Of a stretch of 64,000 nt of DNA, positions 34,001-46,824 are shown one piece after another (within the stretch, counting starts at the first letter, position 1; every line of letters starts with the position of its first letter). This DNA comes from Escherichia coli (lineage in GTDB: Bacteria > Pseudomonadota > Gammaproteobacteria > Enterobacterales > Enterobacteriaceae). The position numbers and the translations under genes are program-made. Location of the stretch: assembly GCF_044324875.1 (NCBI RefSeq), contig NZ_CP172185.1; one strand, 5' to 3'. The notes beneath the pieces were generated by a model, which did no database searches, had not been told where the DNA came from, and saw only the letters and a list, made by a program, of their open reading frames with translations.

Positions 34001-34853
34001 GCAGTAACGCCGCAAAAGGTTGTCGTGCTGGGGATAGCGAGGGAATAGCAGCGAGTACTTTATCTACACAGCGTTGCCACTCATCTTCTGAAGCGAGTGA
34101 AAGATGATGACATAGACGTTGATGCCAACTAGGTAGCGATTCTGCTTCGTGATTAGGTGGAATGATGGTGGTTACTGCGCCTTTTACTGGTTTATATTTG
34201 AGTTGAAGAGCGAGAAGGGCGATTTCAACGGCACTTTCCAGACCACAGCGAATGACTAAGTCATCGACCAGTTCATCTTGAGAGTAAGAGTTCCAAAAGC
34301 CCCAGAGCAATGCTGCATCAGATTGCGCACTCCCTGTCGGTTGATTACCCTTAACTCGAATTTGTAACTCAGCAAAAGCCTGCTGCCAGTTTTCTGGATA
34401 AGAGCGGTAATTGTTGTCGGGATCATATGCCCTGGTGTTATTCGCGATGCGCTTCCATATTTGGCCATCTTTGTACAGATAATTGATCTCTCTGGGGCGA
34501 GAGCGATGAGGAAAAGCAAATCGATTAATATCGTCAGTGACCGGAATGACTGCATCATCAGCCAGCCATGGGCGTTTGTTTTTACTCTCAAGGGAGGTTT
34601 CAACTTCAGGAGTGGCTTTGGTGATGGGGGGGATATGCACGTTTGCTGAAGCATTTTCCACATAGCCTTTTTTCGTTTTCTCTGCGATCAGCTTAAGCTC
34701 CGCTTTTGCCGCTGCCGCAGCATCCGCAAAGCTTTTTACCTGGTTTTGCCCGTTGGTGCCAATTTTTCCCCAACTGATATGCAACTCGTTTCCCTGTTGC
34801 TCCACCGCCCAGAATTTATGTGATTTTTCGTCCTGAAAGATAAAGTGTCTCAT
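31056..34853 (-). CDS. molR: MolR (annotated molybdate metabolism regulator; WGR / DUF4132), intact
   Basis: 1265 aa; N-terminal WGR domain; adjacent to metG as in E. coli. Confidence 0.75.
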   Translation of the reverse strand: MRHFIFQDEKSHKFWAVEQQGNELHISWGKIGTNGQNQVKSFADAAAAAKAELKLIAEKTKKGYVENASANVHIPPITKATPEVETSLESKNKRPWLADDAVIPVTDDINRFAFPHRSRPREINYLYKDGQIWKRIANNTRAYDPDNNYRSYPENWQQAFAELQIRVKGNQPTGSAQSDAALLWGFWNSYSQDELVDDLVIRCGLESAVEIALLALQLKYKPVKGAVTTIIPPNHEAESLPSWHQRLCHHLSLASEDEWQRCVDKVLAAIPSLSPARQPFAALLLPERPDIANAMALRYADQNVPAMTWLRLVVTDDAALTTAEKYDFPPLYHDFRAYLAMLLANNGVRGVSRILLEFTEEHSDNPTYLFERISETEDLVKWLWKTNHPDAIQILILGVIGKKKHLEYLSKACQKHPAAALAAYATLLAIHEDKEWRKALVKLITATPELVTDVIPRVNAKAAGILSECRTQLVAEECEYATADMLPELFVAPPWVINKKTNVIPVFDLPVLPIPAVTDITPGITELISHTDISRFSKIAQFQSSQQTLFTDLPLIEKESWETSFIPFTPEQQILWQLGFNEWLHCEDDLHEKKYIPQSAVDALLRFDFPALKAEFAKYHNNANKSWNLSALCYLPGQQAISFLNQIIIEERYSGEKEILAVFGSTAIPAFMTCLQRDHQRLWIFTLFIGASELALPMAQRLQKKMAYKDSVNWLANNPRHATAGLLPLALGKPCQNREYARQALRLLVKLNQRETIEEIARRYNQPDVLAALATLFDSDPLEEYPAKIAPPPGFYQFTLWRRPRLKSNNLPLPDDAMRHLGTMLSFPRDITAYAGLATIKETFTRESLADFGWDLYTAWTEAGAPAKENWAFTSLGILGNDDTARKSTPLIRAWPGESQHKRAVSGLDVLADIGSDVALMLLNGIAKKIKFVALQEHAREKINIVAENRGLTMAELEDRLAPDLGLDSSGSLTLDFGPRQFTVGFDETLKPVVRDANGKVLKDLPKQNQSDDKTLATDAVNLFKQLKKDVRAIASQQVDRLEQAMCQRRRWTAEQFRLFLVEHPLVRHLTRRLLWGVYTEENTLIACFRVAEDSTYSDAQDELFTLPAGNIGIPHVLEIPPESAAAFRQIYVDYELLPPFQQLERGSYHLADNERNVHELSHWDGRLCQAGRIVGLERRGWQRLEESGSVYAMRKSTPYGALELETEHFSLIYGETGYSDLLPVESVKITASYDRYGKQSSPTFSVLDNITASELINDIESLFD

Positions 34854-44006: not shown

Positions 44007-44034
44007 CCCCCTCTCTTCGAGGGGGCTTTTTTTT
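44007..44034 (+). terminator. Intrinsic terminator after yehA (ccccctc/gaggggg hairpin plus T9)
   Basis: Perfect 7-bp GC stem followed by cttttttttt. Confidence 0.8.
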
Positions 44035-44371
44035 AGCGATGATAAAAAATCTCACCGTCGTAGGCTTTAATGATTTTACCGTCGGTGTCGCTGATCAACA
44101 CGTACGCGCCACCCATATAGGTCCAGTGCGTCCCGGCATCAGGCGCGGGCAGGTTACGTAACTGCCACTGCTTAATGTTGTACTCATCGGTGCGGTACAT
44201 CTCTGGGACGGTATCGCCTGGTTTGAAATGCTTAAAGTCAGCAATGAAACTGCTTAACTCATACTTAGAAATTCCCGAGGTATTGGTCGAACCCGCGGTG
44301 GCTGGTGCGGCCCAGGCGGCACTGGTAACCAGCAAAAGCGCACCCAGCAACATCTTATTTTTAATGGTCAT
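44033..44371 (-). CDS. rcnB: Periplasmic nickel/cobalt homeostasis protein RcnB (YohN)
   Basis: 112 aa from MTIKNKMLLGALLLVTSAAWA; downstream of rcnA. Confidence 0.85.
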   Translation of the reverse strand: MTIKNKMLLGALLLVTSAAWAAPATAGSTNTSGISKYELSSFIADFKHFKPGDTVPEMYRTDEYNIKQWQLRNLPAPDAGTHWTYMGGAYVLISDTDGKIIKAYDGEIFYHR

Positions 44372-44589: not shown

Positions 44590-45420
44590 TTATCGCATTA
44601 TGCCCATAAAGCCATGCACACCCATATACACACCAACTAAGCCAATCAACAGACTGGAAAAATAGGGGGCGCGTTTAGCGAGAGTGTTAAATCCGCCCCA
44701 GCGTTTTGCAACCTGCTGAACGCTGATTGCTGCGCCAACGCCTACGGTGACCAGCGTTAACGCCAGGCCGATGCTGAAACTGACGACCAGTGTTGCGCCC
44801 AGTGTCAGGGCTTTCAACTGAATGCAAATCAACAGCACGGTAATTGCTGCCGGGCAGGGGATAAGGCCACCGGTTAAGCCAAATAACAAAATTTGCCAGT
44901 TGGTGACCTCTCTACCATCAAAGCGTCGTTTAATGTCATTGGCATGGGCTCGTGCATGAGCATCCTGATACTCCCAGTGTTCGTGATGGTGATGATGTCC
45001 ATGGTCGTGGTGATCTTCGTGATCGTGATGACGGTGATGATGCTCATGATCATGCCCGTGCATATTCTCCAGCCAGTTGCGTTCGCCGCGCCAGGTACGC
45101 CAGAACATCCAGAACGCGGTGCCAATAATGATCACCGCGGAAATCAACTGGAGCCACGGTTCCGCCGACTGCGCAGTAAAGCGTTTGCTGATCACCATCC
45201 CGCCAAAGGCAATTAACCAGACCACTGCGGTATGCGAAATAGTTGCTGCCAGTCCGAGCATCACCGCCTGTTTAATGGTGCCTTTGATGGCGATGATAAA
45301 CGCCGCCATCATCGTTTTTGAGTGCCCTGGTTCCAGGCCATGAAGCGCACCAAGTAAGATGGTGCTGGGGATGAAGAACCAGGCGTTTCCTTGCTGAAGA
45401 AGAGTGGTAAATTCGGTCAT
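44590..45420 (-). CDS. rcnA: Nickel/cobalt efflux permease RcnA
   Basis: Membrane protein with a long His-rich loop (HGHDHEHHHRHHDHEDHHDHGHHHHHEH). Confidence 0.92.
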   Translation of the reverse strand: MTEFTTLLQQGNAWFFIPSTILLGALHGLEPGHSKTMMAAFIIAIKGTIKQAVMLGLAATISHTAVVWLIAFGGMVISKRFTAQSAEPWLQLISAVIIIGTAFWMFWRTWRGERNWLENMHGHDHEHHHRHHDHEDHHDHGHHHHHEHWEYQDAHARAHANDIKRRFDGREVTNWQILLFGLTGGLIPCPAAITVLLICIQLKALTLGATLVVSFSIGLALTLVTVGVGAAISVQQVAKRWGGFNTLAKRAPYFSSLLIGLVGVYMGVHGFMGIMR

Positions 45421-45457
45421 GATAATAATTCTTAGTATTAATTCGGCAATCCGATTC

Positions 45458-45492
45458 TACTCCCCCCCAGTACCTGATACTACCCCCCAGTA
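45458..45492. promoter_or_regulatory. Two RcnR operator sites (TACT-G/C tract-AGTA) in the rcnA-rcnR divergent intergenic region
   Basis: tactcccccccagta and tactaccccccagta. Confidence 0.65.
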
Positions 45493-45540
45493 GATTAATA
45501 GTGCTATGATTTTTCATGTTCTTGTTAACCAGGTGTTGCC

Positions 45541-45813
45541 ATGTCTCATACAATCCGTGATAAACAGAAACTGAAAGCGCGTGCCAGTAAGATTCAGGGC
45601 CAGGTCGTGGCGCTCAAGAAAATGCTCGACGAGCCGCACGAATGCGCTGCATTTTTACAACAGATTGCTGCTATCCGTGGCGCGGTAAACGGTCTGATGC
45701 GGGAAGTGATTAAAGGTCATCTGACGGAACACATCGTTCACCAGGGGGATGAGCTAAAACGTGAAGAAGATCTGGATGTCGTTCTGAAGGTGCTGGATTC
45801 TTATATCAAATAA
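45541..45813 (+). CDS. rcnR: Ni/Co-responsive repressor RcnR (CsoR/RcnR family)
   Basis: 90 aa, [21 protein letters not shown]... Confidence 0.92.
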
Positions 45814-45904: not shown

Positions 45905-46035
45905 CCAAACGACTCGGGGTGCCCTTCTGCGTGAAGGCTGAGAAATACCCGTATCACCTGATCTGGATAATGCCAGCGTAGGGAAGTCACGGACCACCAG
46001 GTCATTGCTTCTTCACGTTATGGCAGGAGCAAACT
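45905..46035 (+). promoter_or_regulatory. TPP (thi-box) riboswitch in the thiM leader
   Basis: Sequence ...ggggtgcccttctgcgtgaaggctgagaaatacccgtatcacctgatctggataatgccagcgtagggaa... is the canonical thiM aptamer; the SD/AUG follow. Confidence 0.9.
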
Positions 46036-46824
46036 ATGCAAGTCGACCTGCTGAGTTCCGCGCAATCTGCGCACGCGTTACATCTTTTTCACCAACATTC
46101 CCCTCTTGTGCACTGCATGACCAACGATGTGGTGCAAACCTTTACTGCCAATACCTTGCTGGCGCTCGGTGCATCGCCAGCGATGGTTATCGAAACCGAA
46201 GAGGCCAGTCAGTTTGCGGCTATCGCCAGTGCGTTGCTGATTAACGTTGGCACGCTGACGCAGCAACGCGCACAGGCGATGCGTGCCGCTGTTGAACAGG
46301 CAAAACGCTCTCAAACACCCTGGACGCTTGATCCGGTCGCGGTTGGCGCACTCGATTATCGCCGCCGCTTTTGTCATGACCTTTTATCGTTAAAGCCTGC
46401 TGCCATACGCGGTAATGCTTCGGAAATAATGGCATTAGCAGGCATCGCCAATGGTGGTCGTGGTGTGGATACTACTGACGCCGCCGCCAACGCATTGCCC
46501 GCCGCACAAACTCTGGCAAGTGAAACAGGGGCTGTCATCGTGGTCACTGGCGAGGTGGATTATGTTACCGATGGTCGTCGCACCGTTGGCATTCACGGTG
46601 GCGATCCGCTAATGACCAGAGTGGTAGGAACTGGCTGTGCATTATCGGCGGTTGTCGCTGCCTGTTGTGCGCTACCAGGCGATACGCTGGAAAATATCGC
46701 ATCTGCCTGTCACTGGATGAAACAAGCCGGAGAACGCGCAGTCGCCAGTAGCGAGGGGCCAGGCAGTTTTGTTCCACATTTCCTTGATGCGCTCTGGCAA
46801 TTGACGCAGGAGGTGCAGGCGTGA
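46036..46824 (+). CDS. thiM: Hydroxyethylthiazole kinase
   Basis: 262 aa, [30 protein letters not shown]... Confidence 0.92.

Follow-up and report, generated by a model that had tools for sequence, protein, structure and literature searches.

The tandem RcnR operator of the rcnA–rcnR divergent promoter in Escherichia coli and length variation in its C/G tracts

The DNA target of RcnR, a repressor of the CsoR/RcnR family that responds to Ni(II) and Co(II), has been published as two copies of the motif TACT-G6-N-AGTA, and citing papers name Iwig and Chivers (2009, J Mol Biol 393:514; PMID 19703465) and Blaha et al. (2011, Biochimie 93:434) as the primary sources. According to those citing papers (PMC3902906, PMC7055735, PMC7105576), apo-RcnR touches the TACT/AGTA repeats, the unbroken G tract between them gives the DNA an A-form-like shape, and the repressor shuts off both of the divergent genes. 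For the Salmonella orthologue, the data fit two tetramers per promoter fragment, and the metal-bound protein binds DNA at least 90-fold more weakly (PMC5709419). For the family as a whole, a literature summary contained in PMC3902906 gives type-1 sites 6–9 bp between the repeats and has them accept tracts of 3–8 bp.

Here, we consider the corresponding region of a 64-kb stretch of E. coli DNA (hereafter the window, i.e. all of the DNA that was analysed), in which a 120-bp gap separates rcnA from the divergently oriented rcnR. With high confidence, we read the paired motifs in this gap as the canonical tandem operator of RcnR and their C/G tracts as a slow mutational hot spot. The operator is already known and well studied, since its two sites are those of the published tandem operator and its core is identical to that of K-12; in other words, it is a textbook RcnR site, one that has been used in synthetic cobalt-inducible circuits, and by itself it adds nothing new. 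Only the variation of tract length between strains brings something new, and the value of surveying it is modest. The literature that we searched held no report of tract polymorphism in the rcn operator, an absence that is no proof that such reports do not exist.

The tandem operator and its surroundings

The features that the argument needs are as follows.

44033–44371, minus strand: rcnB, periplasmic accessory protein, downstream of rcnA (open reading frame; 339-nt rcnB annotated at the homologous position; Pfam RcnB, PF11776)
44590–45420, minus strand: rcnA, Ni(II)/Co(II) efflux pump of 276 aa with a His-rich loop, the repressed target (open reading frame; homologous annotation; Pfam NicO, PF03824)
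45429–45434, minus strand: CTAAGAA element, 8 nt upstream of the rcnA ATG, probable rcnA Shine–Dalgarno sequence (conservation scores of 8–9 and spacing to the ATG at 45420)
45454–45459, minus strand: putative rcnA –10 hexamer, TAGAAT (from conservation)
45458–45472, minus strand: RcnR operator site 1, rcnA-proximal, of CsoR/RcnR-family type 1 (sequence, K-12 identity, published consensus)
45473–45477, no strand: inter-site spacer CCTGA, which sets the 20-bp site-to-site period (species and strain alignments)
45478–45492, minus strand: RcnR operator site 2, rcnR-proximal (sequence, K-12 identity)
45502–45510, plus strand: putative rcnR extended –10, TGCTATGAT (from conservation)
45541–45813, plus strand: rcnR, CsoR/RcnR-family Ni/Co-responsive repressor of 90 aa (open reading frame; annotation of homologous loci; PF02583)

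Site 1 reads TACTCCCCCCCAGTA, with a C7 tract at 45462–45468, and site 2, which follows after the 5-bp segment CCTGA, reads TACTACCCCCCAGTA, with a C6 tract at 45483–45488. The gap from TACT to AGTA is 7 bp at site 1 and site 2 alike, and each site is a 15-bp AT-rich inverted repeat whose 7-bp center consists entirely or largely of a C/G run. Read along the minus strand, the sites become TACTGGGGGGGAGTA (site 1) and TACTGGGGGGTAGTA (site 2), both of which fit the published TACT-G6-N-AGTA. The preliminary description had called this a duplicated RcnR operator in the rcnA–rcnR divergent promoter, and it was right to do so: the reverse complement is the published tandem operator, and the 65-nt core, including both sites and the 5-bp spacer, is 100% identical to that of K-12 MG1655 (NC_000913.3). 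It had also given the sites as two copies of TACT-(C6/C7)-AGTA set 5 bp apart; the spacing and the tract lengths of 7 and 6 hold, and site 2 needs correcting from TACT-C6-AGTA to TACT-A-C6-AGTA.

Could such a pair arise by chance? The pattern TACT-N7-AGTA matches the 64-kb window only twice, at sites 1 and 2, against 0.23 matches expected, and 3 of 100 sequence shuffles contain two or more matches; of the 11 G/C runs of at least 6 bases in the window, two lie in these sites. What excludes a chance origin is conservation: of 80 species representatives, 70 have the tandem pair upstream of rcnR.

Conservation also points to where the two promoters may lie. The ATTC just before the TACT of site 1 is 70–90% conserved, and other genera keep TAnnnT at the rcnA –10 position (TAAAAT, TAGGAT, TATACT and TATAGT). 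We infer that this –10-like hexamer overlaps the outer half-site of site 1, which would put the C7 run just upstream, in the promoter spacer. On the rcnR side, the positions TG-TA---T are 90–99% conserved over 79 sequences, with TGCTATAAT, TGGTATAAT and TGGTAGAAT as variants in other genera, and site 2 would then cover the –35 region of an extended –10 promoter. The CTAAGAA element is probably the rcnA ribosome-binding site. A consensus promoter scan of the intergenic region returned only matches that overlap start codons and called neither of the putative –10 elements.

The published model was established on the identical K-12 sequence, and for this exact sequence the literature shows two apo-RcnR tetramers on the operator, one on each site. 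In that model, each tetramer contacts the TACT/AGTA half-sites and reads the A-form-like shape that the unbroken G/C tract imparts, and RcnR wraps the flanking DNA such that both promoters, that of rcnAB and that of rcnR itself, are off. Binding of Ni(II) or Co(II) lowers the affinity for DNA, and the efflux pump is made. The K-12 operator has been footprinted experimentally, and a lack of RcnR binding to its identical 35-bp segment is already excluded by the literature; nothing in our analysis speaks against the operator identity.

The gene neighborhood is likewise familiar. At homologous RefSeq loci, rcnA and rcnR are annotated, rcnB lies 3′ of rcnA, and a thiM TPP riboswitch follows rcnR. 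Outside the operator, the window differs from K-12 by V38F in RcnR (codon 38, 45652–45654, three residues past Cys35), where most other E. coli agree with K-12, and by a 6-nt insertion at nt 388–393 of rcnA, in the His-rich loop; the RcnR of strain PCN033 has another single substitution, G68R. Differences in the length of rcnA (810 nt in WW2, 825 in K-12, 831 in the window, 852 in EDL933 and 858 in EC4115) arise in the His-rich loop, making this a second repeat-driven polymorphism of the operon.

The DNA beyond rcnR varies as well. In PCN033 and WW2, an island with a tyrosine integrase and an HNH endonuclease sits between rcnR and thiM, at a place that corresponds to ∼45905–46036 of the window; in PCN033 it spans ∼8 kb and is accompanied by a second copy of the TPP riboswitch 5′ of thiM, and the WW2 locus that we examined ends within it. 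The window is without the island, yet in the rcn intergenic region it matches PCN033 with 100% identity. In the O157:H7 strains EC4115 and EDL933, an outer-membrane-protein gene and a hypothetical gene lie 3′ of rcnR, where K-12 and the window have thiM and its TPP riboswitch. At the far left, positions 1–∼8000 and 12013–13713 of the window are not collinear with K-12 and hold lambdoid prophage tail genes, for a J tip attachment protein, a collagen-repeat tail fibre and a DUF4376 protein, together with an IS66 transposase, all of them next to btsS, the gene for the pyruvate sensor kinase.

Operator geometry across species

We compared the rcnR loci of 80 species representatives. Both sites are found upstream of rcnR in 70 of them and one site in 9; in the remaining one, Escherichia whittamii, the region is lost. 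Among the 70 two-site species, the spacer of site 1 is C7 in 65 and that of site 2 is A-C6 in 59, the 7-bp spacing between half-sites is kept in 68 at each site, and the 20-bp period from site to site, about two helical turns, is kept in 67. The columns of the cross-species alignment that belong to the operator sites are 90–100% conserved. Substitutions within the tracts do occur (CCCCCCT, ATCCCCC, ACCACCC and others), and they mostly leave the length of 7 bp intact. The 5-bp inter-site spacer has 26 different sequences among the 70 species and a conserved length; E. coli strains themselves carry single-nucleotide changes there (CCTAA, CTTGA). Since the spacing and the period are near-invariant and the spacer sequence is free, it is the geometry of the operator, and not its sequence alone, that is under purifying selection, as judged from these alignments.

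Two loci from the species comparison are described here for their own sake. In E. whittamii Sa2BVA5, a deletion of ∼152 bp fuses about codon 11 of rcnA to the rcnR ATG, such that the operator–promoter region and the start of rcnA are gone; its flanks, GGCGTTNCC and GGTGTTGCC, suggest a microhomology-mediated event. Vibrio coralliilyticus ATCC BAA-450, a host outside Enterobacterales whose RcnR is 74% identical, has a tandem operator consisting of TACTCCCCCATAGTA, 5 bp and TACTACCCCCCAGTA at –96 to –62 upstream of rcnR, which suggests that the cassette either was transferred horizontally or has been conserved from very far back.

Length and copy-number alleles in E. coli

To survey strain-level variation, the 65-nt core was queried in each of its variant forms against 5,426 complete E. 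coli genomes, with matches taken from the band of at least 99% identity, which at this length amounts to an exact match. The canonical core is present in about 4,812 of about 5,345 complete genomes (∼90%). Site 1 has C6 in 126 complete genomes and C8 in 105; site 2 is one base longer (A-C7) in 29 and one base shorter (A-C5) in 28. Together, the length alleles amount to 288 of about 5,345 complete genomes (about 5.4%), and alignments of sampled loci locate the indels in the tracts. The suggestion that slippage could make tract length, and with it operator strength, vary between strains therefore holds, as regards length, at the sequence level, with roughly 5% of complete genomes carrying a ±1 allele and C6 fixed in O111; the comparison of E. 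coli genomes proposed in the preliminary description has been run, and the lengths, far from being invariant, vary, in agreement with short-read metagenome contigs.

The number of sites can change too. A 20-bp deletion in strain 97_3250 merges the two sites into one, and three sites result from a 23-bp duplication in strain WW2 and from a 20-bp duplication in the O111:H8 strain 8E. Unequal exchange between the two 20-bp units would produce both one-site and three-site alleles, and the single-site layouts of Edwardsiella, Erwinia and an Enterobacter resemble the 97_3250 fusion in their sequences.

Homopolymer lengths are easily misread; how much of this variation is inherited, and how much has been introduced by sequencing? 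A serious contender, to which we nevertheless assign the smaller share of our belief, is that the differences between genomes are mostly homopolymer miscalls of long-read or 454 assemblies. As an error control, we counted –1 alleles at two coding homopolymers of the window, the G7 run of a DUF4132 gene and the G6 run of yehP. The former (34626–34632, in a gene for a 1,265-aa protein that 1,570 of the 5,426 genomes possess) is one base shorter (G6) in 8 genomes; an ST131-type group that makes up about a third of the 1,570 has GGGGGTG in place of an unbroken run, leaving ∼1,000 intact and a G6 rate of ∼0.8%. The yehP run (18101–18106) is G5 in 15 genomes (∼0.3%), including PacBio assemblies from CDC. 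These control rates of 0.3–0.8% come within about 2-fold of the site 2 alleles, at 0.5% each way, and once O111 is removed, the excess of site 1 C6 over the control is likewise only about 2-fold; a Fisher odds ratio of 3.0 obtained with 1,570 as the denominator overstates the contrast, which falls to ∼1.9 with the ∼1,000 intact-G7 genomes. Separately, strain A14 has G8 in the DUF4132 run, and its copy of the gene carries a frameshift annotation; a spread sample of 60 genomes contains one G8 genome in all.

The identity of some of the genomes points in the same direction as the control. PacBio-only assemblies from CDC (CP027xxx) are over-represented in every variant list and present in the yehP control as well, with 2013C-3513 and 2014C-3061, both of the PacBio era, appearing in the operator C6 list and the yehP list alike. 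Four "ET" strains of one laboratory have the site 2 –1 allele in common, and EC4115 has C6, while RM6067W, presumably an isolate of the same spinach outbreak, has the full-length 120-bp intergenic region.

Against miscalls as the main source stands, above all, the coherence of lineages. When the 455-bp haplotype of O111 strain 11128 with C6 was used as the query, 47 genomes were 100% identical to it, every serotype-named one being O111 (H8, NM, H– or H2), and these genomes stem from many laboratories and years; strain 11128 itself, which is among the 47, we take to be a Sanger-era sequence. The next-best matches, from O26 and relatives, have the same haplotype with one base more, i.e. C7. Within the O111 clone, C6 is found in 47 of 48 genomes, the deviant being 8E with its 20-bp duplication, and reversions to C7 number zero. 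Because random miscalls cannot give 47 identical C6 haplotypes beside a C7 sister in O26, the sequences identify C6 as an inherited allele that is fixed in the O111 Shiga-toxin-producing (STEC) clone.

Other lineages tell against miscalls as well. O121 strains from three laboratories carry C8, as does at least one draft assembly that encodes the O121 RcnA allele, and two O121 loci, each from a different laboratory, show no difference over 2,666 bp and both have C8; no O121-private SNP lies within ±400 bp of the tract. The urine isolates Y5 (China) and MINF_8D (Australia) are also identical over 2,666 bp and have in common the site 2 +1 allele and an rcnA frameshift from A5 to A4, and the site 2 +1 allele is found on two further rcnA haplotypes in which rcnA is intact. 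As a side observation, the frameshift of Y5 and MINF_8D, at about nt 102 of rcnA, describes a clone with both a pump pseudogene and a broken operator geometry; in FCI1, too, a frameshifted rcnA occurs together with site 2 +1.

Independent samples add a further argument. Among 67 metagenome contigs, mostly from short reads, 61 are canonical, 2 have C8, 2 have C6, 1 has site 2 +1 and 1 has a substitution; of the 5 contigs with a length allele, 3 (2 C8 and 1 C6) are on haplotypes that are neither O111 nor O121, and two of those three are identical to K-12. Draft species representatives, SPAdes assemblies among them, vary as well, two with C8 at site 1 and one with a –1 allele at site 2. By the testimony of these haplotypes and contigs, the tract alleles are real and recurrent, and part of the scatter among complete genomes is probably still error. 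The practical caution is that homopolymer calls from long-read-only assemblies inflate apparent regulatory polymorphism.

Consequences for repression and comparison with known systems

What would a ±1 allele do to repression? It would bring the half-site spacing to 6 or 8 bp, and at site 1, it would also shift the period to 19 or 21 bp and alter the spacer upstream of the rcnA –10. Since such alleles break the conserved geometry, they probably weaken or alter repression; an effect is made likely both by the shifts in spacing and period and by the constraint on length across species. Some tolerance is conceivable because the literature puts type-1 sites at 6–9 bp.

The opposite reading, that the ±1 alleles are real and functionally silent, with a spacing of 6–8 bp tolerated or a second, intact site being enough, would make them neutral hitch-hikers in O111 and O121, and we regard it as unlikely, though deserving of attention. 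It agrees with the part of the type-1 family description that allows 6–9 bp between repeats (PMC3902906), with the natural single-site promoters of Edwardsiella, Erwinia and Morganella, and with the epidemiological success of O111 and O121. Neutrality would, however, let length drift, and at each site 68 of 70 species retain the 7-bp spacing beside a 5-bp spacer that is free to change; moreover, the length alleles belong to tips or to single clones and are absent from deep clades.

A more ambitious proposal, which we offer as speculative and rather improbable, is that the tract alleles and the one- and three-site alleles form a natural series that re-tunes Ni/Co efflux, with recurrent slippage set against purifying selection for C7. 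If true, the O111 (C6) and O121 (C8) clones would have constitutively altered expression of rcnA and rcnR, and with it an altered tolerance of nickel and cobalt or an altered supply of nickel to hydrogenases. The operator presents a geometry that is frozen across Enterobacterales and yet gives rise to alleles with a ±1 tract or a changed number of sites, and a major Shiga-toxin-producing clone is fixed for at least one of them. We see in these natural variants (N6, N7 and N8; one, two and three sites) suitable material for two questions; how strictly does the shape readout of RcnR need tract length, and do O111 and O121 differ in their handling of nickel and cobalt?

That the C tracts are a contingency locus, in which frequent reversible slippage switches rcnA and rcnR within a clone as in Neisseria or Haemophilus, is highly improbable: homopolymer tracts do lie inside the operator–promoter, the putative rcnA –10 would place the C7 run in the promoter spacer, and +1 and –1 alleles recur on several haplotypes, but the tracts are only 6–7 bp long where classical contingency tracts are usually at least 8 bp, the same C6 is found in 47 of 48 O111 genomes with none back to C7, and C7 is the length kept in ∼90% of E. 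coli genomes as well as in 65 of 70 species, which speaks for low rates and purifying selection. Put in terms of what defines such loci, a tract within the operator and length polymorphism between strains were both found, whereas reversible variation within a clone was not seen among the 47 O111 genomes or the two O121 loci, and neither tract reaches 8 bp. Because the alleles are clone-fixed and tract length is near-invariant across species, the tracts are, on this sequence record, a slow hot spot for mutation that purifying selection keeps in check, and not a fast switch.

Set beside the systems already described, the window's operator is closest to that of K-12, which has the same two sites, 5-bp spacer, 65-nt context, flanking genes and orientation; an alignment with MC4100 shows just two intergenic differences from K-12, C vs T at 45452 and G vs A at 45531, both outside the sites. 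Within the CsoR/RcnR (DUF156) family, both sites belong to the type-1 class of operators, of which the FrmR operator is an example, with one tetramer each. Type-2 CsoR operators, in contrast, have two short G/C tracts at a spacing of ∼11 bp and take two tetramers per site, whereas the window has two separate type-1 sites instead. Finally, there are the phase-variable promoters that are known as contingency loci and are built on homopolymers, for example the poly-G tracts of porA and opc in Neisseria and the poly-C tract of fim in Bordetella. The likeness is that here, too, elements of a promoter or operator have a G/C homopolymer between them, and alleles that differ by one base change the spacing of those elements; the difference is that the tracts of the window are shorter (6–7 bp), their alleles are clone-fixed instead of switching, and the canonical length is kept across a bacterial order.
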